From positions 540,001-572,000 of the forward strand of contig JACQJH010000002.1 of assembly GCA_016205145.1 (NCBI GenBank): a stretch of DNA of 32,000 nucleotides, written 5' to 3'. The DNA comes from Candidatus Iainarchaeum sp. GTDB taxonomy: Archaea > Iainarchaeota > Iainarchaeia > Iainarchaeales > JACQJH01. Below are positions 2,933 through 29,196 of this stretch, one piece after another. Every line of letters begins with the position of its first letter. Within the stretch, counting starts at the first letter, position 1. The position numbers and the translations under genes were made by a program. The notes under the pieces are model-generated. The model searched no databases. It worked only from the letters and a program-made list of their open reading frames with translations, and was not told the origin of the DNA.

Positions 2933-2968
2933 CTGTTTTTAAATATGCGTTGTAATACAATGTATTAC

Positions 2969-3262: not shown

Positions 3263-3671
3263 CTTCTTCCGGCAAAAGCACTTCAACAATTCCCGTCAGG
3301 CTTTGAAAATGCCCGTCCCTTGAAACCATGACCGCCCTGTTATCCCTCGCGACAAGTGCGTGAAGGATATCGGCATAATGCGCCCCTTTTATCTCCAGGG
3401 AAAGCCTTTTTGCTTCGGAAATCTGCCCCGCGGAAATTTCAAGCCGCAGGATATTCTCATTGAAAGGGGCAAACATTTGCCCAATCCGCTCGCTTGAATA
3501 ATCGTGCCCAAGCTCCATGACAACCAAATCAGAATACAAAATAAGCGAATCGTTTTCAACGCACTGTTTCAAAAAATCAAAAGCGAACATTCCAAGCGGC
3601 CTCAACCCGTCACTTCTGTCCTCAAAGTAGTCGCGCCAGACGGAAGTGTCAACGTAAAAGCGCTTTTCCAT
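3249..3671 (-). CDS. PIN-domain protein (VapC-like ribonuclease)
   Basis: Acidic PIN signature positions: FYVDTS (N-terminal Asp), VVMELG, HYADILH, VSRDGHF. About 140 aa. ATG at 3671 is preferred over the GTG at 3692. The 3' end overlaps the RHH gene by 14 nt. Confidence 0.7.
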   Translation of the reverse strand: MEKRFYVDTSVWRDYFEDRSDGLRPLGMFAFDFLKQCVENDSLILYSDLVVMELGHDYSSERIGQMFAPFNENILRLEISAGQISEAKRLSLEIKGAHYADILHALVARDNRAVMVSRDGHFQSLTGIVEVLLPEEVIFD

Positions 3672-3747
3672 GACCGCTTTGGCAGGCAACACGCATTAAA
3701 AGGCTTGGTGAATTTCGGCGATTGCAGAAGCGCATTGCCGCAAAAAG

Positions 3748-5001
3748 TCAAACCCATTGAAGGATTTTCTTCTGGTGTTTCAGGGCGTCGTACAAAACGC
3801 TTTTTTTCCTGTAAGTTTCAATGGGCACGACAAGCTTTGACTTCAGGAAAGCGAATGCCAGGTCAATGCCGGAAAATGCAAGCGGTTTTTTCTGCAGGGC
3901 GTGGCGCACGTTCTCGCGGATTTGCCAGGTTCCAAGAGGAACGTCGTAGCCCTTGCCTATTTCCCTGAAAACAATCGCCGCGCCCTGCCTTTTCTCCCTG
4001 CGCAAATACTCGCAGACAGCAAGCCTCGCCGAATAGTATGCGCCCGTAATGTTGTCGGCATAGTTTTTCCTGCCCGAAAAAAACTCGAAATCGTGCGCGA
4101 CGTGGAAATCGGTTGCGTTCGGCGTCCACACCCCGCCCGGCATCCATGTTTCCATCATTTCAAACGACCATTCATTCGGCAGAAGCATCACCCAGAAATT
4201 GTTGTCAAGGTAATTGGAATTGAACAGCCTGATTTCGGAAAGCTGGGGAAGATATTTGACTTTTTCAAGCAGCTGTTTTGAAACCGTGTCGTCCACTGCA
4301 GTGATCGACCACCTGGTCGGGACGAATTTCCTGTTCTTTTTCACGCCCAGGGTGCCGGCGGACAAAAGCTTGTAAAGGAAATGCACCGGCAGGCCGTCAG
4401 TATAGAGTTCCTGCATTGCGGTCGTTGATTTTGCATCCGTGTCCGAGACAAGGTAGTCGACTTTTGTCGGAATGCTTGGGTTTGATTCGAACGAAAATTT
4501 TTCCATGGCGGCTGAGGGGCCCATCGGCGCGAAAAGGTCGGAAAAGGAAGAGCCGAGTTTCGGCTTGTCCTTGAGTTTGACGTCAAGGTCAACCTGTTTT
4601 TCGGACATGGCGATTTCCTGTATGGCGGCAACGTCATATGTCGGGTTTGACGCGGAGTGCACGGAAACTTTTTTGTTGGAGCGGAACAGCTGCTGGCGAA
4701 AGCCTAGAATTTCGCTTGACGGAAGCCCATACCATTGTTCGGGATTGTCAAGAAACGCGGCGTCTTCGACGAGTTGCGGCGGAGACAATGGTGCGATGTC
4801 AACCTGCGGATAGTTTTTCCACGCAACGAAAATTGACGGAGGGGAGGAGCCGACAAACTCCTTGGCATCGAATAGCCTCTGCGTTGCCCGCTTTTTTTCA
4901 AAGCGGTCAAGCAATGGGCAGGACGGAAGATTGCACCACAGCCTGCCCTTGCACGGAACGCAGATGCCCGGCGTTGGCACGAATGAAGGCGAAGCCTGCA
5001 T
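3748..5001 (-). CDS. nreA: Nre-family DNA repair protein (NreA-like, DUF650/DUF651)
   Basis: 417 aa from the ATG at 5001. N-terminal Cys cluster CVPCKGRLWCNLPSCP and the motif FVPTRWSITAVDD. The 650-aa ORF-track entry is an upstream shadow extension antisense to the 5117 gene. Confidence 0.7.
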   Translation of the reverse strand: MQASPSFVPTPGICVPCKGRLWCNLPSCPLLDRFEKKRATQRLFDAKEFVGSSPPSIFVAWKNYPQVDIAPLSPPQLVEDAAFLDNPEQWYGLPSSEILGFRQQLFRSNKKVSVHSASNPTYDVAAIQEIAMSEKQVDLDVKLKDKPKLGSSFSDLFAPMGPSAAMEKFSFESNPSIPTKVDYLVSDTDAKSTTAMQELYTDGLPVHFLYKLLSAGTLGVKKNRKFVPTRWSITAVDDTVSKQLLEKVKYLPQLSEIRLFNSNYLDNNFWVMLLPNEWSFEMMETWMPGGVWTPNATDFHVAHDFEFFSGRKNYADNITGAYYSARLAVCEYLRREKRQGAAIVFREIGKGYDVPLGTWQIRENVRHALQKKPLAFSGIDLAFAFLKSKLVVPIETYRKKSVLYDALKHQKKILQWV

Positions 5002-9130: not shown

Positions 9131-9138
9131 TTTTTTTT
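9131..9138 (+). terminator. T8 run immediately downstream of thrS
   Basis: TTTTTTTT lies 22 nt after the thrS stop. Archaeal termination typically uses oligo-T. The run abuts the stop codon of the convergent minus-strand gene. Confidence 0.35.
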
Positions 9139-9500
9139 CAGGAAACCACTTGGACTGTCACAGGATCATAACCTGTGGTTGCCTTGACCTTTGCCGCTGT
9201 GCCGGAAACAATGTCGGAGCGGATGTCGCTTGGCAGGCCAGCCGGGCTGATGTAGGCTGTTATCGTGATGCGTTTCCCGGAAGCGGGCGGGGCGTTCGCA
9301 TGTTCTTGGAAGTCAAGCTTTTCAAGCAGGAAAACCGTGTCGGCTTTCTGCAGCCTTGCGAGAATGTCGGTTTTCGCTGTCAGCAAAGCCTTTGTCGAAT
9401 CGTTGATTGCCAGAAAATAGCTTAAAGCGACAAGCGAGAGGCCGATGACGACAACCGCTATAAGCAATGCCTCAAAGCTAATCTGTCCTTTTTTGTTCAA
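9138..9500 (-). CDS. class III signal peptide (type IV pilin-like) protein, last gene of the pilus operon
   Basis: N-terminus (L)NKKG|QISFEALLIAVVVIGLSLVAL has KG-Q, Glu at +5 and a hydrophobic helix. I chose the TTG start at 9500 because AAGGTG lies 5-6 nt upstream. The ORF-track ATG at 9548 would add 16 non-signal residues. Confidence 0.6.
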   Translation of the reverse strand: MNKKGQISFEALLIAVVVIGLSLVALSYFLAINDSTKALLTAKTDILARLQKADTVFLLEKLDFQEHANAPPASGKRITITAYISPAGLPSDIRSDIVSGTAAKVKATTGYDPVTVQVVS

Positions 9501-9510
9501 GAGAGCACCT

Positions 9511-10017
9511 TCAGATCGGCACGTTAAGCGAAACCCCGCCGGAGTCATTCTGGATTGCTATGCGCAGGCTTGCGGGACCGGTTATGGGTGCGGAAATGTT
9601 GCCGCAGGAATTGATATTTTTTATGAACGTTGCCTCGCCCACGCACTTGTTGATGTTGCCCGTGCCGTCATTCTGGCATGCCGGCGGCTCTTTTCCCGGG
9701 CCGAGCTTTGCGCTGAGGCTTGCCTTAAACGTGATTTTTGACGGACTGCATTCTATCGTTGCTTCTGCCGGAATGAAGACGTTGATCGTTTCCTTCGCCT
9801 CGCCAGAGGAAGTGAGGATGGCATTTGTGGCCGAAGCGATTTTGTCCGCGGCAAGCCTCGCCTGCCCGACCCTTGCAACGTCTTTCGCGGATTCAGCCGC
9901 AATAGTGATGTTCGGCTGGACGTAGCCCACGATGTAGACAAGCGAAATGAGCACAATCATTATGAATTCGATTGACGCCTGGCCCTTCCTGTTTTTCAGA
10001 AACCCAAAATTTTCCAC
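9511..10017 (-). CDS. class III signal peptide (type IV pilin-like) protein, 168 aa, 4 Cys
   Basis: GTG start. N-terminus ...KNRKG|QASIEFIMIVLISLVYIV. Ser/Thr/Gly-rich beta-type C-terminal part with Cys residues (ECSPSK, PPACQND, NKCVGE, NSCGN). Overlaps the end of the peptidase gene by 22 nt. Confidence 0.7.
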   Translation of the reverse strand: MENFGFLKNRKGQASIEFIMIVLISLVYIVGYVQPNITIAAESAKDVARVGQARLAADKIASATNAILTSSGEAKETINVFIPAEATIECSPSKITFKASLSAKLGPGKEPPACQNDGTGNINKCVGEATFIKNINSCGNISAPITGPASLRIAIQNDSGGVSLNVPI

Positions 10018-11117
10018 AGCAAATCACCCGCAATGCCAAGCAAGACGAACGCAATCAGGACCGAGGGCGCAAAGGCCGCGCTCTTCTTGACCAGGATTTT
10101 TTCCGGAATGCGTTTTTCCATGCATAATTTTTTCAGCTCCGAAAGCTCTTCTTCAGTCAGGCCGCGCGCCTTGATGCTCGACGCAATCTCCCTTCCCTGG
10201 GGCTTTAGCTCGGACAGAAGGGATTCTAATTTATTGGCTTTTAAGTGGTTAATAATTGTTTTTATTGAAAGCGGCTCCTTTTCCGCCACATTGCCGTCGG
10301 AAAGCAGGAAAAAGCTTTTCGCGGGAATGTCGCCTTCCGCCAGCTCGCTGACGGGCTTCTCCTCAACCAAAAACCGCTTTGAAACCGCGAAAAGCTTTAA
10401 GAAAATGTAAACAAGCGAAATTGCCGCGGTTGAAGCCAGAAAGCCGGAAAGCGCCGGCAAAAGGCTCTGCCACAATGCAAACGCAAACAATCCCGCCGAC
10501 ACTGCCGGTTTTGCCTTGGCCGGCAGGAAAGCCGCAATGAAAAGCAGCGGCAGCACCAGAATCTGCGGCAAACCGAACAAAACCAGGACCGCGTTCAAGC
10601 CCAGGGCAAGGGCAATGATTTTTGCAGTCGAAACAACCGTGCCCCTGACGCTTTCAAAGATTTCCCTGCGCGCAACCGCGTCCGATTGCAGGCCGCGCAC
10701 GGCAATCATCGCGCCGAAAGGCATGACCGAAAAAACCGAGAAAATGAAAAGCGTGAGCGGAAAAATTGGAAGGGGAATCGCCTGCAGCAGCGGAATTCCA
10801 AGCAATGCGCCGGCAACCGCGGGATTGAACGGGTTCGCGAAGGCAAGCGCCGTGAACAGTTTCACGTCCCCGCCGGCCCAGACGCCGAGCTTCCACAGAA
10901 GCCACGAAACGCAAAAAGTCGCAATTCCCAAAGCAATCGAAAACCCCAGAATTGACCAGTCGGATTTCACAAACGATTCGGTTGTTTTGGATGCCAGCGC
11001 AAAAGCAATCAGCGAATACGTCAATTTGTTCGGGATTAGCCTTTCTCTCAAATCAATGATTGACGCAACGGCAAGGACTGCAAGCGAAACAAGGTAGTTT
11101 GCCAGAACAAAAAGCAT
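9996..11117 (-). CDS. A24-family archaeal prepilin peptidase (EppA/PibD-like) with a C-terminal extension
   Basis: From the ATG at 11117: TM1 followed by the first catalytic Asp context ASIIDLRERLIPN, then the second Asp in WAGGDVKLFTALAF. There are extra TM helices, an approximately 95-aa charged soluble segment, and a final TM (AAFAPSVLIAFVLLGIAG). Confidence 0.8.
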   Translation of the reverse strand: MLFVLANYLVSLAVLAVASIIDLRERLIPNKLTYSLIAFALASKTTESFVKSDWSILGFSIALGIATFCVSWLLWKLGVWAGGDVKLFTALAFANPFNPAVAGALLGIPLLQAIPLPIFPLTLFIFSVFSVMPFGAMIAVRGLQSDAVARREIFESVRGTVVSTAKIIALALGLNAVLVLFGLPQILVLPLLFIAAFLPAKAKPAVSAGLFAFALWQSLLPALSGFLASTAAISLVYIFLKLFAVSKRFLVEEKPVSELAEGDIPAKSFFLLSDGNVAEKEPLSIKTIINHLKANKLESLLSELKPQGREIASSIKARGLTEEELSELKKLCMEKRIPEKILVKKSAAFAPSVLIAFVLLGIAGDLLWKILGF

Positions 11118-11219
11118 TGCATTCCACACCTGCACAAAAAAAACTTGCCTATTAAAAGAAAGGGCGGCGCAAATAAAAGGCTTATGAAGGCCACGCAATC
11201 ATTTTGTGAATAGGCAGGC

Positions 11220-11390
11220 TTACTGCATAAGCGAAGTGATGGTTTCGCTGCGGTAGGTCAGGATGTCAGCCTGCGCCTTGGTTGCAACGGAAACGATTGC
11301 ATTGATTAGAAGCGCGGCTGCAATCGCAAGGAGGATTCCGAACAATGCCGTCAGAAGGTATTCAAAAGCCGTTTGGCCGCGCTCATCCAC
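11220..11390 (-). CDS. short Flp-sized type IV pilin (paralog A)
   Basis: A GTG at 11390 with AAGGTG 6 nt upstream gives (M)DERG|QTAFEYLLTALFGILLAIAAALLI. The ORF-track ATG at 11411 is an alternative start. Confidence 0.65.
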   Translation of the reverse strand: MDERGQTAFEYLLTALFGILLAIAAALLINAIVSVATKAQADILTYRSETITSLMQ

Positions 11391-11400
11391 TGGCAACACC

Positions 11401-11565
11401 TTAAACTCCATTGACCGTGTTGAGGAAATTCGTCAGCTGCTGGTTTCCCTGCTGCTTGGTCGGCCCGATGAAGTTCGTGATAACCACGATTACAACCGCG
11501 GCAATCAAAACGGCTGCCGCAATCAGCAGAAGGTATTCCAGTGCGCCTTGACCTTTCGAATCCAT
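11401..11565 (-). CDS. short Flp-sized type IV pilin (paralog B)
   Basis: MDSKG|QGALEYLLLIAAAVLIAAVVIVVI from the ATG at 11565. 54 aa. Confidence 0.7.
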   Translation of the reverse strand: MDSKGQGALEYLLLIAAAVLIAAVVIVVITNFIGPTKQQGNQQLTNFLNTVNGV

Positions 11566-11579
11566 TGGTTTCACCAAAA

Positions 11580-11756
11580 TCATGCGACGTTCCCCAAATT
11601 TGCAAGACTTGAGTTGTACGTGCCCTGGGAATTTTCAATGCTGCCTTTGCCGCTGCTTGCAGAGCTTGTCAGCAGTATTATGACGACTGCCGCAATCAGC
11701 ACAGCCGCACCAATCAGCAGCAGATACTCCAATGCCCCTTGACCTTTCGAATCCAT
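11580..11756 (-). CDS. short Flp-sized type IV pilin (paralog C)
   Basis: MDSKG|QGALEYLLLIGAAVLIAAVVIILL from the ATG at 11756, with GGTGGTG upstream. The ORF-track N-terminal extension reads through a terminator hairpin. Confidence 0.7.
   Translation of the reverse strand: MDSKGQGALEYLLLIGAAVLIAAVVIILLTSSASSGKGSIENSQGTYNSSLANLGNVA
11683..11732. repeat. 50-bp perfect direct repeat, copy 1 (in pilin C)
   Basis: acgactgccgcaatcagcacagccgcaccaatcagcagcagatactccaa is identical to 11928-11977. It encodes LEYLLLIGAAVLIAAVV. Confidence 0.9.
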
Positions 11757-11783
11757 TTCAACACCACCGGTTTTTTTAAGAAT

Positions 11784-11806
11784 AAAAAAAAGGCCAGCGA
11801 GTGGCC
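11784..11806 (-). terminator. hairpin plus T8 intrinsic-terminator-like element after pilin D
   Basis: The minus strand reads GGCCA-ctcgc-TGGCC followed directly by TTTTTTTT, starting 13 nt downstream of the pilin D stop. Confidence 0.55.
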
Positions 11807-11818
11807 TTCTCTGCCAGT

Positions 11819-12001
11819 TCATGGAGTGAGCTGGTTTTGCAGGTTTGACTGCGCTTCCGTAGCGGTATTAGCCGATGTCTCAGCTGTGGTTTTGCCCGAC
11901 TGCCCTATGTTCGTCAGCAGCACTATTACGACTGCCGCAATCAGCACAGCCGCACCAATCAGCAGCAGATACTCCAAAGCGCCCTGTCCATTAGAATCCA
12001 T
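11819..12001 (-). CDS. short Flp-sized type IV pilin (paralog D, candidate major pilin)
   Basis: MDSNG|QGALEYLLLIGAAVLIAAVVIVLL from the ATG at 12001, with a perfect GGAGGT 8 nt upstream. Followed by the hairpin-T8 element. Confidence 0.75.
   Translation of the reverse strand: MDSNGQGALEYLLLIGAAVLIAAVVIVLLTNIGQSGKTTAETSANTATEAQSNLQNQLTP
11928..11977. repeat. 50-bp perfect direct repeat, copy 2 (in pilin D)
   Basis: Identical to 11683-11732. The flanks diverge. Confidence 0.9.
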
Positions 12002-12017
12002 TTTTTCAACCTCCAAT

Positions 12018-12182
12018 TTAACCGTTTAAAACCTGTTGCTCCCTGTTGGCGAGTTCGTTCTGAACCGCTTTTGGCACAGATTTTAAGTATAAAGCAACGA
12101 CCAAGGCTACGACAATGGCTGCGGCGATCATAAGCAGCACTTCGATTGAGGCCTGCCCGAGTTCCTCCGAAAAAAGGCTCAT
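12018..12182 (-). CDS. short type IV pilin-like protein (paralog E)
   Basis: MSLFSEELG|QASIEVLLMIAAAIVVALVVALYL from the ATG at 12182, which overlaps the upstream stop (ATGA). Confidence 0.65.
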   Translation of the reverse strand: MSLFSEELGQASIEVLLMIAAAIVVALVVALYLKSVPKAVQNELANREQQVLNG

Positions 12183-13111
12183 ATCACGCCACCAAACAGT
12201 CCAACCGACAGGATTTTTGCCGCAAAATAACAAACAAACGCAAGTAATAGAAGGATTGGGATGTATATAATACTTTTGCTCATTTTTCCGTCGCGCATAA
12301 GCGAAAGCATGAATCCGACGGCAAGAATTTCAACTGCGATATACGCCTGCATGAGCAGCACTATGAGGTCCTTAACTGCGACTGCCTGCGCCCTTGCCGC
12401 GAGGCCGATGTCAAGGCCCTGTGAGGCCGAAACCACAAGGAACGAAATGATTGTCGAAACGATGCCGAAAATGAGCGGCGCCACAATCGCGCCGGCGGCA
12501 ACCATGAACATGACCTGCATCGTGGTTTTCGCCTTGCGCTCCTGCCCTATGCGGTAAATTTCGCGGATGTCGTCGGAAATCTCCTCAAGAACGTCGGCAA
12601 GGCCCGCGCCTGCCTTGATCGAATCGATTATGACGATGATTGACCTGCTTACAAGCCTTGAATCGATGTTTTCGGAAAAGCTTTTCAGGGAATTCTCAAG
12701 GTTTTCGCCTTCCTCAAGCTTCCTCAAAACATTGTTCATCTCCTTTGCCAAAGGCCCGTATTCGGCGTTCGCAATCTCCCGCAAAGCATATTCGTATGTG
12801 CCGCCCGCGTTAAGCGTGTCAGCCATCTGTTTCAGGGCTTCCGGCAGTGCCTTTTCAATGGCGTCAATGCGCTGCATTGCCTTCAGGTAAGGATAACCCA
12901 AAAACAGGTCCAATGCGACAATTGGAATGACCGCGACAAAAATCCTGAGCTCGTCGAACAAACCGGCAACGCTGAGGAAAAAGAACGTGAGAACCGCGAA
13001 GATGATTGCGAGCGCCACGGCCATGGCGATGAAAACCCCCGCGTCCACTTTCAGGCCGGCCTGCTTCAAATAGCCCTGGTACTTTTCAACTAGTGTCTGC
13101 TCCTGTTCCAT
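12179..13111 (-). CDS. TadC/EpdK-like pilus platform membrane protein (T2SSF domain)
   Basis: 310 aa with an N-terminal TM pair, a cytoplasmic helical domain (LPEALKQMADTLNAGGTYEYALREIA) and C-terminal TMs. Confidence 0.8.
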   Translation of the reverse strand: MEQEQTLVEKYQGYLKQAGLKVDAGVFIAMAVALAIIFAVLTFFFLSVAGLFDELRIFVAVIPIVALDLFLGYPYLKAMQRIDAIEKALPEALKQMADTLNAGGTYEYALREIANAEYGPLAKEMNNVLRKLEEGENLENSLKSFSENIDSRLVSRSIIVIIDSIKAGAGLADVLEEISDDIREIYRIGQERKAKTTMQVMFMVAAGAIVAPLIFGIVSTIISFLVVSASQGLDIGLAARAQAVAVKDLIVLLMQAYIAVEILAVGFMLSLMRDGKMSKSIIYIPILLLLAFVCYFAAKILSVGLFGGVI

Positions 13112-13114
13112 ATT

Positions 13115-14281
13115 TCAAGACCTCGGCTGGCTGATTGCAATGTACGCTATGAGAGTTGCAAGCACTATCGGCATTATGACAAGATAAATGACCGCGATGT
13201 TCTCCGGCGCGAGCGGCAGAACCGAGAAAATGCTGCTGCCGCTGCCGATCTGCAAAGGCGTGTTCCTGACTCCGCCGAGAATTGCGATGAAAACCGGCAG
13301 GACAATGGCGATGAAAATGAATATGACCCCGAAAAAGTTGAGCGCTTCCGCAAAGGCCTGGATTCTCGCCCTCAATTCGAACGAAACGTCTTCCGCGATT
13401 GTTTCCATGACATCGGAAAGGTTGCCCCCGGTCTTCAGCGCCCTGATTATGTGCAGCAGGGCACTCCTCAACGCAACGGACTGCGTGCGCAAGGCGAGGT
13501 TCCGCAACGCATCCTTGGTGTCGGTGCCCTCCTCTATCTGCGTGACAACCCACGAGAATTCCTCGGACAAAGCGCCGTAACCTGCGGTTGCAATCGCCTG
13601 GATTGTGCGGTAAAGGCTTATCCCGGCTTTAAGCTCGGTCGCCATGTGCCTCAAAGCGAAAGGCATTTCCCTTGTCACCGCCTCGCCGCGCATCTGCGCA
13701 AGCTTTCTCGGCAAAAACAGCATGAAAATTATCGTGATGAGCCAGACAATGAATCCAACCAGTATGCCGACCGGAAGGATCACTAAAATGTTCAGGGTCA
13801 TCGCCGAAAACAGTACGCTGCCCACAACCCAGCCGATCAAAAACATTATGACGGAAACAACCGCTGTAATGGCAAGGTACTGCTGCGTTGACAGCCTGAC
13901 ATTCGCGGATTCAAGATAAAATGAGAGTTCCTTCGACGCGGGCAACTCCTTTATGACGTTGACTATCGGCCTGAAAAAACCCTGAAAGCGCAGGAAAACC
14001 GTTCCAAGCTTCTGGATGAGCGGGTTCTTGAGTTCCTGCAATTCCTCGATGCGCTGCACCTCGATTTTCGCCCCATGGCCTTCCGCAATGATTCCGCGCA
14101 GTTCTTCAAGCTCGCCCGAAGCGGCCTCCAAAGGCCTGCCCTCGTCCTTGTACTTGCTCTTCATCTTTTTGACTATCTGCTCTACCTTGTCCATGTCCAC
14201 TGATTCCTTGGACTGCGAACCAGGGCCGGCAGGCTTTTCCTGCCCGGATTTTTTCCTGTCACCAAAAAGCTTCAAAGCCAT
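13115..14281 (-). CDS. TadB/EpdJ-like pilus platform membrane protein (T2SSF domain)
   Basis: The ATG at 14281 (MALKLFG...) lies 12 nt after the ATPase stop. Charged N-terminal region, TM pair, T2SSF motif EMPFALRHMATELKAGISLYRTIQAIA, and C-terminal TMs. Confidence 0.8.
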   Translation of the reverse strand: MALKLFGDRKKSGQEKPAGPGSQSKESVDMDKVEQIVKKMKSKYKDEGRPLEAASGELEELRGIIAEGHGAKIEVQRIEELQELKNPLIQKLGTVFLRFQGFFRPIVNVIKELPASKELSFYLESANVRLSTQQYLAITAVVSVIMFLIGWVVGSVLFSAMTLNILVILPVGILVGFIVWLITIIFMLFLPRKLAQMRGEAVTREMPFALRHMATELKAGISLYRTIQAIATAGYGALSEEFSWVVTQIEEGTDTKDALRNLALRTQSVALRSALLHIIRALKTGGNLSDVMETIAEDVSFELRARIQAFAEALNFFGVIFIFIAIVLPVFIAILGGVRNTPLQIGSGSSIFSVLPLAPENIAVIYLVIMPIVLATLIAYIAISQPRS

Positions 14282-14293
14282 AACAACCAACAA

Positions 14294-17200
14294 TCATTTT
14301 TTCGCGCGGCCGTCAAGGAACGCCTGGAGCTTTGCCGAAACTTCCGGCATGCCCCTTATCCCTAGTTTGACTAACTCCTTCAAAAACCTTTCCCTTTCCG
14401 AAATTTCGTCGTCAAGCTGCTTTTTCTTCAAACCGCTGAAATCGCCCAGCATCTTCAGGTAAGCGCTCGGCACTGAAGTCCTTTCAAACGAGTCATCCAC
14501 CGGATTCCACTTGAATAGCTCCTGGGTCTGCGCCTTGCCCTGCAAAACGCCCGACACTTCCGAAATTTCGGTCAGCCTCCTGATAGTGCCCTTCTGCCTG
14601 TCATGCAGCCTGTGCTCGATTATGACAAAATCCAGGCCGCTCAGCATGAGAGGCGGCACATTCATGGGCGGACTGGTAACCCTGACAAGCGTTTCCTGCG
14701 CGGAATTCGCGTGCACTGAACCCAGGGAATTGCCCACAATAATCGATTCAGCGACAAAATTGTGCGGTTTCAGGCCGCTTGCCTCTTTTTCGCCAACGGT
14801 CAAATCGTAGACAAAACCGCTGTAATCAAATTCATGGATGTGCGTAATCCGGTCCCAGAAAATTTCGCTTGACGCGAGCTGTTCAAGGCCGTCAGCTTCA
14901 ATGCCAGCCGCCTTGAATGCCACGGCCAATTTTTTGACACTCTCCTTTGACGGCATTCTCTGGCCGAGCCTGAAAAAGCGCAAAAGGCCCTGGCTCACGC
15001 CAGCCAACCTCGCAATTGCGCGCTCGCTAATGCCCTTTGCCTGCGCCTCCGCAACCATTTTGGCAATCAGGGCATTGCACGGGACAACATCTACATTGGT
15101 GTTCGGCTGGACGGGTTTTGAAAGAAGCAGTTCAAGCTTTTTCAATTTCTCAGGATACTTCAACGGAAAAGCCGCCGAAAATTTGCGGACATTCTCCAAG
15201 CCGTAAACGTAAAGCCTGAACCACCTGCTGTTGGCTGTTCTGGACTCGTATTTCCTCGAAACGATCCCTTCCGTGAGGAGGGCATACCGTACAAAGTCAA
15301 TGTAATGCTCGTTTCCGCACGTGAAAACAAGCGCGTTATTTTCGAGGTCAACGTGGCCTTCCGCGTCAAAAAAGCCGGCCACAAACTCGTTGAGTGAAGA
15401 GCAAAAATGGCTGTTTGAAACCAGTGCATTGTTTCTCGGCCCCGCCGGAATTGCGAACAGCTGCTGGGCTTTCCTCGATTTGACAATGCCACTCACACTC
15501 ACTTCAAAACAATTTTTTTCAGGGGACGCGGGCCTCACTCCGACATGGGTTCCGTCAAACTCTTTTTTCATGAAAGCGGAAAATTCAGGAATTATCCTTT
15601 CATCTTCGGTGAAAAGACTTACCCTGCCCTCGTTGCATTCATATTGTTTGCCGTTCTTCTCGCGCTTGCGCCGGTAATCAAGAATGTGCCCATCGCCGTG
15701 CAACAGGCCGCTCCAATACTCGATTTCCGGCTTGACGGCATCAGCATTCCGGTAAAGCCTGGCGGGAGTTGCAACAAACATTGCCTCTTCAAGATTTCCC
15801 GCGGCAGTCTGCACAACCTTTCCGTCAAAAGTGTAAAAAGGGTGGTTCGGTGTAACCGTGATTTCGGCACCGCTTGCAAGCCTTATGTGCCTGACCTTTC
15901 CGGCGTATGGTTTTCTCCTGGCTTCGACAACCTTTTCGCGCTGCATTTTCCCGCTGTCGTCGAGTGAATTTATTTCCTTGCCATCAACATCAACAATCTG
16001 CCATTCGCCTTCCTTCCTCGAGCCTTTCATTTCAATCAGGCCGTCAACAAACGTGCCAATTTCCTCAATGCCGTCAGGGAATGGAATCTTTGTGTCAAAA
16101 GTAAGGCAGCCATCGTGTCCAGTATTCATTGCAGTGAAAAGCGAAAACGCCTCGGCATGCCTGATTTCGCCGACGATTATCCTGTCCGGCCTCATGCGCA
16201 AAGAGTTTTTCGTCAAAATGTCCATTGTCAGCTCGCCCTTCCCTTCCAAGCCCGGCGGCTTTGCCTCAAGCCTGATCCAATGGTTCAATGGAAGGTTCAA
16301 CTCTGCCGTGTCCTCTATTGTAATGACGCGCTCGTTTTCCGGAATGAAGGATGCCATGACATTCAGCAGGGTCGTCTTGCCCGAACCCGTGCCGCCGGAA
16401 ATGAGCACATTTGCCGGCCTGACGCTCATGCCCTCAACGCACAGCCAGAGGAACGCGGCAACTTCCGCATTGATTGTGCCGAAATTTATGAGGTCGACAA
16501 TCGAGTAAGGGTCTTCCCTGAATTTCCTGATTGTGAGGGTGGAACCTGAAACAGAAGCCGGCGGGATTGTGGCATTTACCCTGCTGCCGTCAGGCAGCCT
16601 TGCGTCAAGCAGCGGCGCGCTCAAATCGACGCGCCTTCCGACCTCGCGCGCAATCCTGTTGATCAAATCCTGCACTTCGTCGTCGGAAAAAAACTCGATG
16701 TTCGTCGCCATCATTTCAAAGTCGCGGTGGAAGACAAAAACCGGCTTTTTCGGGCCGATGATCATTATTTCCTCAAGCCTGTCGTCCTGCACAAGCTGGT
16801 CGATGAGGCCGTAGCCCACCATTTCCCTTACAACCGCGTCAATGTAAAAATCAAACCGTCCCCTCGGAATCTTCAGCTCCGGTGAAGACTTCAGGATTTC
16901 CTCGATTTTCTGCTTGTAAATGATTCTTCTCTGCGCCTGGTCGCGGATGCGGTAAGGCTGGATGCTTATGAGCCTTGTCGCAGCCTCTTTCAGCGTATTG
17001 ATTATCGTCCTCTCGGACGCTGCCGCCTTGGGCACCGGAACAAAATAGTATAGCAGTGGCTTGTCCGGCAGCCTGAAAATCCTGACATCGCCGTAGGACG
17101 CGACCTCGGTTTTGGTTTTGGTTTCCTCAAGCTCTTTTTCAACCTGCGACTTCTGGCCTTCAACCAACTGCATTGCCTCGCCGGCTGGAACGGCTTCTTC

Positions 17201-17404
17201 CCCGGCTTCCGGCGCCTTCGCCGGAATGGTTGAAGTCTGCCTCATCGCCTGCAATATTTCCTCGGCAGCCGCGGCCTTTTCCCCGGCCACGGGCTTTTTT
17301 GCAGCCGCTACTTTGGATGGCGGTGCAGCGCTTTCCGCCTCGCCCGGCTTGCGCTTCGACGCCTTGACCTTGGTCATTAAGTCTTTCAGGTAATCAGTGG
17401 GCAT
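14294..17404 (-). CDS. type II/IV secretion (TadA/FlaI/VirB11-like) pilus assembly ATPase, interrupted by an intein
   Basis: 1036-aa precursor with Walker [11 protein letters not shown] and Walker [12 protein letters not shown]. The His-box [14 protein letters not shown] is split by 460 aa, so the mature ATPase would be 576 aa. An approximately 100-aa A/E/K/P-rich N-terminal region is present. Confidence 0.9.
14729..16108 (-). mobile_element. intein (460 aa) with a LAGLIDADG homing-endonuclease domain
   Basis: Starts GHDG|[10 protein letters not shown] (Cys1). Block B is [20 protein letters not shown] motifs are [13 protein letters not shown] and [12 protein letters not shown]. Block F is GFVYDLTV...PHNFVAES. 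Ends IIVGN|S (Asn, with Ser at +1). Removing it in frame restores the contiguous conserved ATPase motif. Confidence 0.85.
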
Positions 17405-17435: not shown

Positions 17436-17460
17436 CTATTATTTAAGCTTTATTTAAAAA
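17436..17460 (-). promoter_or_regulatory. A/T-rich TATA-like boxes upstream of the pilus operon
   Basis: The minus strand reads TTTTTAAATAAAGCTTAAATAATAG, 32-56 nt upstream of the ATPase ATG at 17404. Confidence 0.35.
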
Positions 17461-21336: not shown

Positions 21337-22719
21337 TTGGCAAAACCCGGAAAGAAGAGGATAAGCTGGGCGCAGGCGGGCGCGCTTTTCGTCATAGTCT
21401 TCATGGTGGGCTCGACGATCGCGTTCGGCGTGCTGTCCAGCGACGACAGCGGCAACGGCAACACGCCGCAGGACGGCCCGCAGCCAAGCCAGCAGCAAAC
21501 CACAATAGCCTACGAGGCGGACAATGTTGACGCTTCAATCCAGCAATTGCTTCCATCCGTGCGGATTGTGGGCAAGACACAGGACTATGATTTCGCGAAA
21601 ATCGACAAGGCGGTTTATGCCGTTGCCGGAGTGAAAAAGGTGCAGTCAGGCTACCAGCCGAACGCCGACACGAACGGCGGGTATTACCTTGCCGACATTT
21701 CTTTCAGCCCCGACTACAACGTCGGATTCATTGCGGAGCAATTGCAGGAAAAAAGCGGCCTGGATGGCCTGGAAGTCTACTCCTACGCCATAGTCGAAGT
21801 GCCGAAAAAGGTTGGGCTGCAGAACAAGGCCTTGAACATTTCAAAGGAATACGAGTTTTCCGTGCAGAGGCTCACGGGCCTTGTCGGCACTAGTTCCATG
21901 CCATTGGACAAGATCAAGATGCTGTTGAGCGTTTCCCTGTCCGGAGAAAAGCTTGTCAATGCGACTGCGATTGAAACCGAAAACTCTTCAGCACAGCCGG
22001 TTGCACATTCCACAAAAGCAAGCCTGCAGGTTTCAGGCCTTGAAAACGAGATTGTCTTTTCAGGCGAATACGCGCTTCCATCCGGCATCACTGAAAAGGA
22101 CCTCAACTCCGCGCTTTCCGGCATAGCCGACGTCAACGCAGTTTCAATCTACCTTTCACAGCCGGCTCCTCTGGGCATTGAAATCTTTGCGGATGAAAAC
22201 AGCCTGGAAGGCATTGCACAGGACGTGAACGCACTGCTTATTTCGGATTATGCGGTCAGCGCGGAAATATCGGTTGACTTGAACGCTGTCACGGTTTCAG
22301 TCGGAGCGGAAGAGGCAGGCCTGCAAAAAATAGCCGAAGGCGTGAACAAAATGCTTTCGGCAAAGTATCCAGGCGCCGAGCCTGAAACCCAATACCCCAA
22401 AGTGCTGCTTGAGGGCAGCCTGAGCCTTGAAACCGGAAAGGCTGAAACCGCTGCAAGCCAGGCGAAAAGCCTGCTTGAAGGCAAAGGCGTTTCAGTGAAA
22501 AGCCTTTTCAGGCTCGCCCGGCTGTCCGCCCAAACCATTGAAAGCGAAGGCATAGTGTATGCCAACGATTCGGGCTTCATTCCCGCGCTCGTGAAGCCGG
22601 AGAGAAAGGAAAACGAAACCGTTGGGTTTGAAGTCTCGTTCTATTCGGTGCGCGGCAAGGCAGTGTATGCGAACGCTGTCGAAGCCGGCCAAGTCCTGAC
22701 CACAGCAGGCAGCCAATAA
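21337..22719 (+). CDS. membrane-anchored extracellular protein, unknown function, internally repetitive
   Basis: 460 aa. TTG start with AAGGTTGA upstream. N-terminus KPGKKRISWAQAGALFVIVFMVGSTIAFGVL acts as a signal anchor, followed by a Q/P/G/N linker and recurring amphipathic helix motifs. I do not recognise the family. Confidence 0.6.
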   Translation: MAKPGKKRISWAQAGALFVIVFMVGSTIAFGVLSSDDSGNGNTPQDGPQPSQQQTTIAYEADNVDASIQQLLPSVRIVGKTQDYDFAKIDKAVYAVAGVKKVQSGYQPNADTNGGYYLADISFSPDYNVGFIAEQLQEKSGLDGLEVYSYAIVEVPKKVGLQNKALNISKEYEFSVQRLTGLVGTSSMPLDKIKMLLSVSLSGEKLVNATAIETENSSAQPVAHSTKASLQVSGLENEIVFSGEYALPSGITEKDLNSALSGIADVNAVSIYLSQPAPLGIEIFADENSLEGIAQDVNALLISDYAVSAEISVDLNAVTVSVGAEEAGLQKIAEGVNKMLSAKYPGAEPETQYPKVLLEGSLSLETGKAETAASQAKSLLEGKGVSVKSLFRLARLSAQTIESEGIVYANDSGFIPALVKPERKENETVGFEVSFYSVRGKAVYANAVEAGQVLTTAGSQ

Positions 22720-22779: not shown

Positions 22780-22836
22780 GCTTTTCGGATGATGGCTATA
22801 CACTAAACCGCTTTTTGCGGTCTGGAGGTTGAAAAA

Positions 22837-23202
22837 ATGGCTTCATTGGAAGAAATCGGGACATGGGCTTTCATTCTCGGCGTAGTGATAGCGGTTCTTG
22901 CCGGCGCAGCGGTCAGCTTTACAGCCGTCAACGGCACAGTAATCGCGTACGTCGTCGGCGCCCTGGTAGTCCTGGGATTAGTCGTCGGCTTCCTGAACAT
23001 CACCGACAAGGAAACAAACAAGTTCCTCATAGCAGCGGTTTCCCTGGTAATCGTTTCAGGCCTCGGAAGCAGCCTGTTGTCGCAGGTCCAGATAATCGGA
23101 GCTGCATTGGGCAATATCCTCGGCAACATCCTTACTTTCGTTGTGCCGGCGGTAGTTGTCGTGGCATTGAAGTCAATCCATGACATAGCCTCCTCAAAGT
23201 AA
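22837..23202 (+). CDS. small 4-TM membrane protein, unknown function (apparently monocistronic)
   Basis: 121 aa with hydrophobic helices (WAFILGVVIAVLAGAAVSF, VIAYVVGALVVLGLVVGFL, FLIAAVSLVIVSGL, ILTFVVPAVVVVAL). Has its own TATA box, a perfect ribosome-binding site and a terminator. Confidence 0.65.
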   Translation: MASLEEIGTWAFILGVVIAVLAGAAVSFTAVNGTVIAYVVGALVVLGLVVGFLNITDKETNKFLIAAVSLVIVSGLGSSLLSQVQIIGAALGNILGNILTFVVPAVVVVALKSIHDIASSK

Positions 23203-23213
23203 ACTAATACAGC

Positions 23214-23246
23214 GGGGGCGAAGAGCCCTCTTTTTTCTTCTTTTTT
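23214..23246 (+). terminator. hairpin plus T6...T6 terminator
   Basis: gggggc (23214-23219) pairs with gccctc (23225-23230) around a 5-nt loop. It is followed by TTTTTT cttc TTTTTT. Confidence 0.55.
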
Positions 23247-23316
23247 CATTTCCTTTTTCTGGCAATCGCCGAAACCAAGACAAACGCATTAAAAGCGTCG
23301 CACGAAAAATTCCGGC

Positions 23317-23682
23317 ATGATTGACGACGCAATGCTCTGCAGGATTTCGCTTGTCGTTGCGCTTGCAGGGATCGCCTTCCTTTTCGCGCTCGACTTTCTT
23401 GACAGCCAAAATTATTCGACAATCACCCAAGCCGAAGGCATTGCCGGCGCAAAAGCCTGGGTGAAGGCAAAAGCCGCATGGACGAAAGAGCAGGGCAATT
23501 CGACATTCTTCGGCCTTGAGGACAGTGAAGGCGGCAGGATTACGGCAACAATCTTTCGGCCAAGCGCGGAGGAAAAAGAACTGTTGAAAGGCAAAGGCGT
23601 TGTCCTTGTGAAGGGCGTTGCCAAAAAAAGCGGCAACGGCTTCATTTTCATTGCTGAGGAGATCAAGGCATGGAAACCCTGA
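23317..23682 (+). CDS. membrane-anchored OB-fold (tRNA-anticodon/nucleic-acid-binding type) protein
   Basis: An N-terminal TM (ISLVVALAGIAFLFAL) is followed by an OB-like pattern: STFFGLEDSEGGRITATIF...GKGVVLVKGVAKKSGNGFIFIAEEI. Overlaps the next gene by 13 nt. Confidence 0.55.
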   Translation: MIDDAMLCRISLVVALAGIAFLFALDFLDSQNYSTITQAEGIAGAKAWVKAKAAWTKEQGNSTFFGLEDSEGGRITATIFRPSAEEKELLKGKGVVLVKGVAKKSGNGFIFIAEEIKAWKP

Positions 23683-24854
23683 TCTGGATTCTGATCGGAT
23701 GCGGGCTCGGCACGCTCACCGGCTTCGCGCCAGGCCTGCACGTGAACTCAATTGCGGTAATTGCGCTTGCATTCGGCTGGAACGATTTCAACATTGCCGC
23801 CATGGTTTGCGCAATGGCGATCGTGCACACTTTTGTGGATTTCCTGCCCAGCATTTTCCTGGGCGCGCCCGACTCGGACACGTTTCAGGCTGTCCTTCCC
23901 GGCCACAGGATGCTCTTGGAAGGAAAAGGGCTTGAGGCCGTCAGCCTGACGGTTGCGGGCGGCCTATTCGGCGGAATGATTGCTATTGCGTTGTCGCCGG
24001 TTTTTTCGGAATTCGCATTGCAGGCATTCGGCTTCCTTCCCGCAATCATTCCGTTTGCCCTCATTGCAATAATGCTTTCAATGGCGTTCGAGGAAAAAGG
24101 CAATAAAAGAAAAAACGCGCTGATTGTTCTGGCTTTGTCCGCCGCAATCGGGGTCATTGCATTGCAGGGCAGCCTGCAATTCAGCGAGCCTCTTCTTCCA
24201 ATGGTTTCAGGCTTTTTCGGGGCATCTGGATTGCTTTACAGCCTCAAGGAAAAAACCATTGTGCCGGAACAGGAAAGCTTTGAAGGAAGCCTTGGCGGAC
24301 AGGACGTGCAGAAAGGCTCGCTGCTCGGCATTGCGTGCGGAGCAATGGTCGCAACCATGCCCGCAATCAGCACTGCGCAGGCGGCGTTCATAGCAAAAAA
24401 AATCCGCGGAAAGTCCGGGCCAAAAGAATTCCTTGTCCTGCTGGGGTGCGCGAACACTGCCGCAATGATTCTTTCTTTTTCAACTCTGTTCGCTGTCGGA
24501 AAGGCGAGGACGGGTGCGGCGGCCGCGGTTGGCGAAATGGCCGGCGAAAGCACGGGGTTTCCGTTGAGGCTTCTGGCGGCGAGCGCCATTGCCCTTGGTG
24601 CCGGGGCAATCCTGACGCTTGCATTGGCAAAACCTTTCCTTGCATGGCTTGCAAAGGCGGACTACAAAAAAACGAATGCGTTAGTGCTTGTTTTTGTGGC
24701 AATTCTTGTCTTTGCGCTCTCAGGCTGGAAGGGAATGATTGTTTTTGCGGCTTCTGCCGCGGTCGGGGTTTTCGCAATCGCCTCCAAAACGAAAAGGAGC
24801 GCGATGATGGCATGCCTCATGATGCCAACGGTTTTAATCTATTTGAACATTTGA
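23670..24854 (+). CDS. DUF112 / TctA-like tripartite tricarboxylate transporter family membrane protein
   Basis: 394 aa, about 10-12 TM helices. The N-terminus GTLTGFAPGLHVNSIAV is typical of the TctA/DUF112 family. GAGGAG ribosome-binding site. Confidence 0.7.
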   Translation: METLIWILIGCGLGTLTGFAPGLHVNSIAVIALAFGWNDFNIAAMVCAMAIVHTFVDFLPSIFLGAPDSDTFQAVLPGHRMLLEGKGLEAVSLTVAGGLFGGMIAIALSPVFSEFALQAFGFLPAIIPFALIAIMLSMAFEEKGNKRKNALIVLALSAAIGVIALQGSLQFSEPLLPMVSGFFGASGLLYSLKEKTIVPEQESFEGSLGGQDVQKGSLLGIACGAMVATMPAISTAQAAFIAKKIRGKSGPKEFLVLLGCANTAAMILSFSTLFAVGKARTGAAAAVGEMAGESTGFPLRLLAASAIALGAGAILTLALAKPFLAWLAKADYKKTNALVLVFVAILVFALSGWKGMIVFAASAAVGVFAIASKTKRSAMMACLMMPTVLIYLNI

Positions 24855-27622: not shown

Positions 27623-28048
27623 ATGCGGCAGAAAGGGCAGCTGAGCCTTGACTATATCCTTGCGTTCCTTGTCCTCATTGTCTTTGTCATAGGCTTCCAG
27701 GCGCTGTCAAGGGAGATAACCAAAAACCAGCAGGTTTCAGGCCTCATAAACCAGGAAACGATTATCGGGAACAACGTTGCGCATCTCATGGCTTCGGCAA
27801 AGGCCTTGTCGGGAAACGACGGTCTTGTAATCGAATACTACGTTCCGGCTCTGCAGGTTGCAGGCGCGGGCGGAGTTGGATGCGACATAACGATTGCCGG
27901 CGGCCAGATAACCATCACTCCGGCAATTGGCGCTTTCGGGCTCAATGAAACGGACGCAATGAAGCGCATTACATTTTCTCCGCCAGGCGGAATAAATTTT
28001 CCGTCAAATGCCAAATGCGGGGAAAAGATTTCAATAACGAAAACGTGA
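27623..28048 (+). CDS. class III signal peptide (pilin-like) protein, 141 aa
   Basis: MRQKG|QLSLDYILAFLVLIVFVIGF, then a Gly/Ile/Thr-rich beta-type domain. Confidence 0.65.
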   Translation: MRQKGQLSLDYILAFLVLIVFVIGFQALSREITKNQQVSGLINQETIIGNNVAHLMASAKALSGNDGLVIEYYVPALQVAGAGGVGCDITIAGGQITITPAIGAFGLNETDAMKRITFSPPGGINFPSNAKCGEKISITKT

Positions 28049-28057
28049 GTTGGAAAA

Positions 28058-28591
28058 ATGCAGAAAGGCCAGATTGCATCGCTTGATTTCCTGATCGGGC
28101 TGTCACTCGTCATTCTTGCGACCGGCCTCATGCTGCGGTTCATGGAATTCCAGGGATACGACTTGAAGGAAAGCGTTGCCTCCGCCGAACTTCGCGGAGT
28201 AGCGGAAACCGCTTCGGATTTGCTTGTAAGCAATCCCGACTGGAACTGCAAAATAACCAGTGCTGTTGGGGGCGCAACGCTCTTGTCTTTGAGCAATTGC
28301 CTGACAAACCAGAGCAAAAGCACCATAAACGACAAAACCAAGCTCGGCATTTCTTCAGGCTATGGCTGCAGCATAACCGACGATGCAGGAAATTACTTTT
28401 TGGCGTCGGCCTGCAAGGATGCCGTGCCATCGAACGCGCCCGATGTCGCAAGCGTGGATAGGGAAATAAACCTAGTTGCAATCAATGGCACGTTGAACGT
28501 GCCAAAGGCGGCGATTGAAAACTGCATGTCCGGCGCGGACACGGCAACCTGTGCGCCCAAGACTTTGAGGGTGAAAGTTTGGCGCGCTTGA
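28058..28591 (+). CDS. class III signal peptide (pilin-like) protein, 177 aa, 6 Cys
   Basis: MQKG|QIASLDFLIGLSLVILATGLML, with six Cys residues in the predicted extracellular part. Confidence 0.65.
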   Translation: MQKGQIASLDFLIGLSLVILATGLMLRFMEFQGYDLKESVASAELRGVAETASDLLVSNPDWNCKITSAVGGATLLSLSNCLTNQSKSTINDKTKLGISSGYGCSITDDAGNYFLASACKDAVPSNAPDVASVDREINLVAINGTLNVPKAAIENCMSGADTATCAPKTLRVKVWRA

Positions 28592-29196
28592 ACCAGAAAG
28601 GCGTTTTTTCCGCGCTCATAGCGGTTGTAGCGGTTGTCCTGCTCGTTTCCACGATTTACAATTCGCAGGCGCTTGGAAGGCAGGCAAATCAGGCGATTAG
28701 CAGGCAGAACATCCTGCCGGCAAACGCGCAATTGCAGCAGACCGTGTTCCTGCTTGACAAGGCGGCAGGCGACGCATTGGCCGACCAGGCATACCAGCAT
28801 CTTGTTGCACAGGGCGGAACCCAGTGCTACAGCCCCAACTTTCCGTCGCCGTTGTATGAGACGAGAGTCAGGGATTACTTCACCAATGTTTTTGCACAGA
28901 CCGGCAGCGGAATAGAATGCAAGATTGATTCATTGGAATTTGACGGAAATCCGGCCGGCACGGACAGCCTTGGCACGCCATCCTTGCACCCAGGCAGCTG
29001 CGAGGCCGGCAACAAGTGCACTTCGTTCATAAGGATAAGCCCGGTCGTGTCATGCGAAATCAGGAATACCGGCTTCAGGGCGCGGGTTTCAAAGAACGCG
29101 GTTTTCGAGAAAGAGCTGTTGTATTACAAGGAAGGCGCGGACTGCAAAATCGAAGTCTTGGACTTGCAGAGCGGCCTGCTTGACGTACTGCCATGA
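28579..29196 (+). CDS. pilin-like N-terminal-helix protein, 205 aa, 6 Cys
   Basis: A TTG start overlaps the previous gene by 13 nt. N-terminus ARLNQKG|VFSALIAVVAVVLLVSTIY lacks Gln at +1. Six Cys residues. Confidence 0.5.
   Translation: MARLNQKGVFSALIAVVAVVLLVSTIYNSQALGRQANQAISRQNILPANAQLQQTVFLLDKAAGDALADQAYQHLVAQGGTQCYSPNFPSPLYETRVRDYFTNVFAQTGSGIECKIDSLEFDGNPAGTDSLGTPSLHPGSCEAGNKCTSFIRISPVVSCEIRNTGFRARVSKNAVFEKELLYYKEGADCKIEVLDLQSGLLDVLP

Follow-up and report, generated by a model that had tools for sequence, protein, structure and literature searches.

Among archaeal type IV pili, the clade 1 or Epd-like systems are characterized by two platform genes, short pilins and a long EppA peptidase (PMC4858521), and Epd-like systems with two platform genes, each encoding a single T2SSF domain, together with short pilins gave rise to the bacterial Tad pili (PMC6668835). 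In Methanococcus maripaludis, EppA needs Gln at position +1 of its substrates and Epd pili mediate surface attachment (PMC4371748), and natural transformation of that organism needs the Epd pilus genes as well as a pair of adjacent genes encoding an OB-fold protein with a single transmembrane (TM) helix and a TctA-like permease (PMC10133366). A "system 1" having two platform genes has also been reported in DPANN archaea (bioRxiv 10.64898/2026.04.22.720090). Here we analyzed a stretch of 32,000 nucleotides (nt) from contig JACQJH010000002.1 of a Candidatus Iainarchaeum species, hereafter the window, which belongs to Candidatus Iainarchaeota (candidatus Diapherotrites; kingdom Nanobdellati, DPANN). 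An operon in this window very probably encodes the assembly machinery of an Epd-like type IV pilus, that is, one of archaeal type IV filament (TFF) system 1, related to Tad.

The operon consists of 11 intact co-directional open reading frames (ORFs) on the minus strand, running from 17404 to 9138 in the order ATPase, TadB-like, TadC-like, pilins 1–5, peptidase, minA and minB (Table 1). Successive genes are spaced by 12, 3, -4, 16, 62, 14, approximately 10 (or an overlap), approximately 100, -22 and approximately 10 nt, using start codons that represent the best-supported choices and that were called identically in independent assemblies. These coordinates and spacings agree with the compact layout, including gaps of about 60 and 100 nt, that had been described in a first-pass annotation of this DNA. 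Upstream of the ATPase gene lies a TATA-like A/T-rich element, which we regard as the putative promoter.

Table 1. Features of the pilus operon and of genes considered together with it (positions in the window; aa, amino acids; a slash marks the predicted cleavage site; values are E-values of profile matches)
Feature	Position	Strand	Basis
TATA-like A/T-rich element (TTTAAATA...TTAAATAA)	17436..17460	-	32-56 nt upstream of ATPase start codon, read from sequence
Secretion ATPase, TadA/CpaF/EpdL-like, 1036-aa precursor, 576-aa extein	14294..17404	-	Pfam T2SSE 1.3e-42
Intein, 460 aa, with LAGLIDADG endonuclease, aa 433-892 of the ATPase	14729..16108	-	Pfam Intein_splicing 2.7e-17, LAGLIDADG_3 5.2e-13
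TadB-like platform protein, 388 aa, one T2SSF domain	13115..14281	-	Pfam T2SSF 2e-21
TadC-like platform protein, 310 aa, one T2SSF domain	12179..13111	-	Pfam T2SSF 2.2e-19
Pilin 1, 54 aa, MSLFSEELG/QASIE	12018..12182	-	Motif; Class_IIIsignal 5e-4, under gathering score
Pilin 2, 60 aa, MDSNG/QGALEY	11819..12001	-	Class_IIIsignal 2.7e-7; GGAGG ribosome-binding site
Pilin 3, 58 aa, MDSKG/QGALEY	11580..11756	-	Class_IIIsignal 3.4e-8
Pilin 4, 54 aa, MDSKG/QGALEY	11401..11565	-	Class_IIIsignal 1.2e-8
Pilin 5, 56-63 aa, ..DERG/QTAFEY	11220..11411	-	Motif alone; no significant Pfam match
EppA-type prepilin peptidase, 373 aa	9996..11117	-	Peptidase_A24 2.2e-14 and Arc_PepC 1.1e-13
minA, larger pilin-like protein, 168 aa, KNRKG/QASIEF	9511..10017	-	Motif; conserved in relatives
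minB, larger pilin-like protein, 120 aa (136 aa from ATG 9548), NKKG/QISFE	9138..9500	-	Motif; 120 aa in independent assemblies
OB-fold protein, 121 aa, one N-terminal TM helix	23317..23682	+	Pfam tRNA_anti-codon PF01336 4.5e-7, above cut-off
TctA-like permease, 394 aa, overlaps end of OB gene	23670..24854	+	Pfam TctA 1.6e-44
JAB/JAMM metalloprotease-like protein, 124 aa	24863..25237	+	Prok-JAB 3.2e-9, HSHPS...D motif
pX1, pilin-like, 141 aa, MRQKG/QLSLDY (Asp +5)	27623..28048	+	Sequence; no Pfam match
pX2, pilin-like, 177 aa, MQKG/QIASLDF (Asp near +5)	28058..28591	+	Sequence
pX3, pilin-like, 205 aa, ..NQKG/VFSALIAVV	28579..29196	+	Sequence only; weakest assignment

A survey of one genome per species resulted in 80 loci (denoted by L and a number below), and the order ATPase-TadB-TadC-pilin 1-(one to four QGALEY pilins)-pilin 5-peptidase-minA-minB was found in L003, L004, L006, L007, L008, L010 and L013. 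The same order from ATPase to minB was also seen in L015, L018, L022 and L025, as well as in the closest relatives located by protein look-up, L083 and L084. Orthologues of pilin 1, pilin 5, minA and minB were found at the corresponding positions, and the small pilin ORFs with their class III signals were thus kept in relatives, which removes the possibility raised in the first-pass annotation that these ORFs are unconserved. In L083, an additional 54-aa pilin and a 535-aa protein with a class III signal, possibly an adhesin, are encoded between RFC and Nre (2708-4600, minus strand); the RFC-Nre interval of the window has no counterpart of either.

The T2SSE domain of the ATPase was interrupted by Intein_splicing and LAGLIDADG_3 domains, and the intein-free protein was 60–72% identical to many Diapherotrites proteins named "CpaF family" or "TadA" by NCBI. 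When the extein was searched against PDB, Caulobacter CpaF scored 264 bits, Archaeoglobus GspE (afGspE) 255 and FlaI 197, and over a core of 280 columns the identities were 48.6% to CpaF, 40.7% to afGspE and 39.3% to FlaI, with the His box AMNTGHDGS being identical in the window ATPase and CpaF. In a neighbor-joining tree (280 columns, 100 bootstraps, M. maripaludis EpdL not included), the window ATPase was nested within Iainarchaeota, and Iainarchaeota together with Micrarchaeota formed a clade in 86 of 100 bootstraps. A split found in 82 of 100 placed these two lineages with Thermococcus, Hadarchaeota, Methanobacteriales, Hydrothermarchaeota and CpaF on one side, and FlaI, afGspE and a second set of DPANN paralogues on the other. 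This phylogeny of the intein-less ATPase, which had been suggested as a check on the initial assignment, therefore placed the enzyme with the clade 1 ATPases and CpaF, apart from FlaI.

These comparisons also bear on whether the locus could instead encode an archaellum, or an archaellum-like rotary motility apparatus. The FlaI equivalog model was in fact the top NCBIfam match of the ATPase at 306 bits, many of its homologues are annotated as 'flagellar protein FlaI' by JGI, and pilin 4 gave a weak, sub-threshold match to Arch_flagellin (1.2e-3). However, the cut-off of the FlaI model is 550 bits, CpaF ranked above FlaI both in the PDB search and in core identity, and the tree split the ATPase off from FlaI. 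The platform, moreover, is made from two genes instead of a single FlaJ, the mature pilins of 45–55 aa are far shorter than archaellins, and domain searches found no homologues of FlaB, FlaF, FlaG, FlaH, FlaX or FlaCDE among the window ORFs. We thus consider an archaellum refuted, with a probability close to nil, and the Epd/Tad-like, non-archaellum assignment of the first-pass annotation to be borne out by the domains, the conserved class III signals, the higher score of CpaF than of FlaI, the tree and the absence of FlaB, FlaG and FlaH.

Two further observations on the ATPase family can be added. Over residues 1–100 (17105-17404, minus strand), Iainarchaeota homologues share an almost invariant MPxDYLKDLxxKVK segment followed by a variable linker rich in Lys, Ala, Glu and Pro, and this N-terminus may be a docking motif. 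L077 and L007 share contig JAOAJD010000001.1, on which a second, divergent T2SSE ATPase (45% identity, in a different clade of the tree) is encoded at a distance of about 20 kb from the Epd-like operon of this Iainarchaeum genome, and similar paralogues occur in Micrarchaeota too (L072–L074), so that some DPANN genomes carry a second TFF system.

With regards to the predicted substrates, a Gly/Gln site with Glu at +5 followed by at least 12 hydrophobic residues was found seven times in the window, each time within the operon, whereas 100 shuffles averaged 0.02 occurrences and never had more than 1. Gln at +1 and Glu at +5, claimed for every substrate of the operon, were indeed present in 7/7. 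The accompanying claim that Lys, Arg or Leu precedes the Gly needs correcting for pilin 2, which has Asn at position -2. The Class_IIIsignal family (PF04021, former DUF361) matched pilins 2–4 above the gathering score and pilin 1 and minA below it, with no match for pilin 5 and minB. Four of the five pilins carry a Flp-type G/xxxxEY motif, and pilins 2 and 3 are almost identical in DNA over the signal and helix, with tails that diverge abruptly. Matches of the pilins to Pfam TadE, Flp_Fap (E = 1.1) and Flp1_like (E = 0.042) were not significant. For minA, an AlphaFold model with a mean predicted local distance difference test score (pLDDT) of 72.7 had a helix at residues 8–69 and a six-strand sheet, which is suggestive of a lollipop-like topology; a Foldseek search of PDB with this model gave nothing with E < 0.1. 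The minA protein is 100% identical to hypothetical protein HY394_06175 of a Candidatus Diapherotrites archaeon metagenome-assembled genome, and a word-indexed homologue search with it returned 3 close relatives only.

Profile searches with Pfam matched T2SSE, T2SSF and Peptidase_A24 as anticipated. Both catalytic Asp motifs of the peptidase, IIDLRER and AGGDVK, aligned to those of M. maripaludis FlaK (PDB 3S0X), and a crude hydropathy scan gave 7 TM segments, as compared to about 9 for the EppA type. The peptidase had initially been singled out as "extended", but a combination of A24 and Arc_PepC is the ordinary EppA architecture.

Comparing the locus with described systems, we found it to resemble the M. 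maripaludis Epd pilus (EpdL ATPase, EpdJ/EpdK platform, EppA and EpdA-E) in having one VirB11-family ATPase, two genes with single T2SSF domains, a long Arc_PepC peptidase, prepilins with Gln at +1 and Glu at +5, and very short major pilins that lack a globular head. It differs in that the window holds everything in one compact operon, whereas M. maripaludis has its ATPase/platform genes, its main locus and its major pilin gene at separate sites, in lacking a DUF2341 adhesin, MinD/FleN or FlaH-like gene at the locus, and in its DPANN host. With the bacterial Tad/Flp pilus (type IVc) it shares CpaF as the best match among solved structures, the order tadA-tadB-tadC, the Flp-type motif in four of the five pilins with a mature length of about 50 aa, a peptidase without a methyltransferase domain, and two larger pseudopilin-like proteins with G/xxxxEF or EA. 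Gln at +1 and the Arc_PepC extension of the peptidase are, in contrast, archaeal Epd traits, and no outer membrane is present. Domains of the secretin RcpA, TadD, TadZ and TadG were absent from the window, and strict membership in the bacterial Tad family was consequently rejected. The grouping of the ATPase and the two platform genes agree with archaeal TFF system 1/clade 1 (Makarova 2016; 2026 MacSyFinder2 preprint). Within that group, the Methanobacteriales and Thermococcales (Thermococcus) cluster only the ATPase with TadB(-TadC) platform genes and have their pilins and peptidase elsewhere, whereas a comparable compact form holding all components is found in Iainarchaeota, Micrarchaeota and Hadarchaeota. 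The suggestion that this composition might be uncharacterized did not stand with regards to its type, because system 1 was already described in DPANN archaea, the peptidase has an EppA-like architecture and the intein occupies a known site.

That intein is inserted in the His box of the ATPase (NTGHDG/C...VGN/SLGSVHAN, splice junctions marked by slashes), at the KlbA site: the precursor of the M. jannaschii KlbA (MJ0781) intein, PDB 2JMZ, starts with MNTGHDG/ALAYDE. The extein alignment runs through the junction with 23 intein-free homologues, with the NTGH.G..G..H.NS columns being invariant, and inteins at the KlbA site were found in 10 further loci. Most of these other alleles carry the class 2 signature Ala1...Ser-Asn/Cys, and a review describes that signature (Ala1, Ser G:6, Cys+1) as common to all KlbA orthologues (PMC4031507). 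The inteins of the window, L018 and L031 instead have Cys1...Gly-Asn/Ser or Cys and are 48–56% identical to each other, so that Cys1 and Ala1 types share one site within Iainarchaeota. Against full-length (436–530 aa) Ala1 alleles from Iainarchaeota, Micrarchaeota, Thermococcus and Hadarchaeota, the window intein had 23–28% identity with E down to ~1e-45, and the mini-intein alleles of L025 and L062 aligned to it at the termini only. It shares with the M. jannaschii KlbA intein (PDB 2JMZ/2JNQ), the class 2 prototype, the host family, the MNTGHDG site and a homologous N-terminal splicing domain (46.7 bits). The two differ in that the window intein combines Cys1, Gly at G:6 and Ser+1, as is characteristic of class 1, and is 460 aa long with a full LAGLIDADG endonuclease, whereas the M. 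jannaschii KlbA intein is a mini-intein. A Cys1 intein at the KlbA site may inform the origin of class 2 inteins.

Besides carrying an intein, the operon of the window is rearranged as compared to relatives. The window has the gene order of L083 (RFC, Nre, ThrRS ... OB, TctA, ..., iPGM), except that the pilus operon is inverted. In relatives (L083, L003 and others) ThrRS directly precedes the ATPase gene in the same orientation, whereas in the window it converges on minB. The genes for aCPSF1, proteasome beta, FKBP, a 460-aa ORF and a small membrane protein lie between the operon and the OB/TctA genes. A search for inverted-repeat scars of this event gave only short pairs at chance level, the best being a shared ribosome-binding site and start region. 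One might hence ask whether the locus is decaying or silenced, the intein having put the motor out of action and the inversion having shifted the operon, and both the severance from OB/TctA as compared to relatives and the lack of the penultimate His in the intein would fit with such a scenario. However, all 11 ORFs are intact with conserved catalytic motifs, and the intein retains Cys1, the block B T..H, Asp F:4, His F:13, both LAGLIDADG motifs, the terminal Asn and Ser+1. His G:6 is also missing in ~5% of functional inteins (PMC4031507). Related Cys1 alleles are furthermore maintained in L018 and L031 at the identities given above, the identical inverted arrangement is present in two independent assemblies, and the ATPase gene is preceded by the TATA-like element. 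Judging from its sequence the intein looks functional, and we regard decay or silencing of the locus as highly improbable; the term "intein-gated", earlier applied to the motor, is in terms of regulation a speculation.

We also examined which genes accompany the operon in relatives. In L003, L004, L007, L010, L015, L018 and L083, minB is followed directly and in the same orientation by the OB and TctA genes, the gaps measuring tens of nt, making the pair adjacent to minB in 7/12 Iainarchaeota loci with enough downstream sequence. OB/TctA were linked to pilus genes in 3/5 Micrarchaeota loci: in L020 the block pilin-peptidase-minA-minB-OB-TctA is intact on the opposite strand from the ATPase, and TctA is surrounded by pilin-like genes in L016 and L017. 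In ~28 Methanobacteriales loci, TctA is found 1.2–3 kb upstream of the ATPase in a separate operon. The JAB gene follows TctA in L004, L018 and L090, and is found one gene (PMT_2) further downstream in L083. The linkage was absent in L006, L022 and L084, and look-ups made from the TctA side found TctA without adjacent pilus genes in Woesearchaeota, in Altiarchaeota and in one further contig; the linkage is therefore lineage-restricted.

The three pilin-like genes pX1–3 of the window are located between iPGM and ABCE1. Homologues of pX1 were found 3' of TctA in L004, L018 and L090, and homologues of pX2 were found beyond TctA/JAB in L004, L007, L008, L010, L018 and L090, whereas phmmer found none of pX3 among the examined loci. 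The pX3 protein has neither Gln at +1 nor an acidic residue at +5. Tip pseudopilins often lack both. The locus had been called self-contained, which is correct insofar as motor, platform, peptidase and subunits are found within 8.3 kb; it does not extend to pX1–3 and OB/TctA/JAB, which belong to the array as found in relatives.

The OB/TctA pair of the window, a TctA-family permease without TctB/TctC, resembles MMJJ_13020 (OB) and MMJJ_13030 (TctA-like) of M. maripaludis with regards to both Pfam families, the OB-then-TctA order, the N-terminal TM helix and the adjacent or overlapping genes, a likeness at the level of domain families and gene layout. In M. maripaludis the OB/TctA pair and the epd genes lie apart, whereas in Iainarchaeota and Micrarchaeota the pair is inside the pilus array. 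The topology of the OB protein according to the positive-inside rule was ambiguous over 11 orthologues, and its single-sequence AlphaFold model (pLDDT 47.8) was unusable. The permease was proposed as a DNA transporter in the transformation study, the scope of which lay outside mutant piliation and synteny (PMC10133366), and genetic evidence for an OB/TctA requirement comes from M. maripaludis and M. thermophilus only (PMC10133366). Neither TctA nor an OB-fold partner is mentioned in the main text and part of the supplements of Makarova 2016 or in the 2026 TFF preprint, and we found no description of a genomic pilus-OB-TctA linkage in the literature searched.

A role of the pilus in surface or host attachment, as suggested in the first-pass annotation, is moderately likely by homology with the Epd pilus of M. 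maripaludis, the only member that has been studied, but the conserved OB/TctA linkage speaks for DNA uptake no less than for attachment. Because the OB/TctA pair is essential for transformation of M. maripaludis, the pilus may also serve in DNA uptake besides attachment, and the conserved linkage makes capture of extracellular DNA, which would be compatible with attachment, a fair candidate for a second function though not one that we can call probable. We propose yet more tentatively that the Iainarchaeota/Micrarchaeota array ATPase-TadB-TadC-pilins-EppA-minA-minB-OB-TctA could be a DNA-uptake machine, with the pilus catching DNA, the membrane-anchored OB protein serving as a receptor comparable to ComEA, and TctA forming a channel comparable to ComEC. 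The competing explanation, to which we likewise assign a substantial probability short of one half, is that of a pure adhesion or host-attachment pilus, with OB/TctA/JAB being unrelated housekeeping or transport genes retained by descent. Surface attachment is the function already known for Epd pili in M. maripaludis, OB/TctA keep their JAB, phosphoglycerate mutase and ABCE1 neighbours when parted from the operon (the window, L084/L090), and TctA is unlinked in Woesearchaeota and Altiarchaeota. Against it stand the persistence of the linkage in three arrangements (Iainarchaeota, Micrarchaeota L020 and the ~28 Methanobacteriales loci) and the genetic requirement of both the OB/TctA pair and the Epd pilus for transformation.

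Several points weigh against our interpretation of an Epd-like pilus with linked OB/TctA genes. The locus is known from metagenome-assembled genome sequence alone, and an accessory ATPase of the TadZ/FleN/MinD or FlaH/KaiC type, usual with Epd and Tad systems, was not found among the ORFs of the 32-kb window. The peptidase scored 52.6 bits with the NCBIfam EppA equivalog against a cut-off of 450, and we therefore call it EppA-like by architecture without claiming orthology. Pilin 5, minB and pX1–3 are without significant family matches in Pfam, and the intein has Gly, not His, at its penultimate position (G:6). OB/TctA lie 6 kb from the operon in the window and 20 kb from it in the genome of L084, and they show no linkage to pilus genes in Thermococcus, Hadarchaeota, Woesearchaeota and the Altiarchaeota locus L086, where the OB/TctA pair stands alone, so that their adjacency within Iainarchaeota could be inherited synteny.

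By analogy with the Epd pilus of M. maripaludis and the bacterial Tad pilus, we infer the following course of cleavage, splicing and assembly for the Epd-like pilus, including filament composition and subunit roles. The ATPase precursor would excise its intein, whereby the His box would be restored, and the resulting hexameric TadA/CpaF-like motor would drive a heterodimeric TadB/TadC-like membrane platform. An EppA-type aspartic peptidase would cleave ~10 prepilins after Gly, so that mature proteins would begin with Gln and have Glu, or in some cases Asp, at +5. The major subunits would probably be the QGALEY pilins, three nearly identical proteins of 49–55 aa when mature, each with a single hydrophobic helix and a variable tail, and pilin 1, pilin 5, minA, minB and pX1–3 would probably be priming or tip subunits.

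The operon DNA is chromosomal, not a mobile element: GC content is uniform over the window and the neighbouring genes are archaeal housekeeping genes (RFC, Nre, ThrRS, aCPSF1, proteasome beta, FKBP, iPGM and ABCE1). Scans of the window for tRNA and Rfam families gave no matches, and scans for sigma-70 promoters and intrinsic terminators, using models unsuited to archaea, gave no excess over shuffles. The 460-aa protein encoded at 21337-22719 (plus strand) has an N-terminal TM helix and no Pfam match, and among the examined loci none outside the strain of the window carried it. A gene for a 121-aa multi-TM protein at 22837-23202 (plus strand) has a ribosome-binding site, GGAGGTTGAAAAAATGG, and start region that nearly match those of pilin 2, with a TTTAAATA element 5' of the gene and a T-rich tail, and a 148-aa ORF on the opposite strand (22803-23249) appears spurious.

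As a pilus operon, the locus is unremarkable, adding a further example to the Epd-like/system 1 loci, which are already known in DPANN archaea and are ancestral to bacterial Tad. As a minimal all-in-one locus, having motor, split platform, peptidase and all subunit classes within 8.3 kb, it should be convenient for heterologous reconstitution and for structures of the archaeal Tad lineage. The main added interest lies in the conserved pilus-OB-TctA array. To our knowledge, archaea have no ComEC homologue, and DNA import in archaea is for that reason an open question. The proposal of TctA-like proteins as the transporter has so far come from one genetic screen, in M. maripaludis, and operonic linkage in two DPANN phyla together with near-linkage in Methanobacteriales makes it testable. 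If the array does function in DNA uptake, the linkage would be independent support for TctA-like proteins as the missing archaeal DNA transporter, and the array would serve both nucleotide scavenging and gene acquisition in nucleotide-auxotrophic DPANN cells, thereby suggesting a feeding route for cells that lack nucleotide synthesis.

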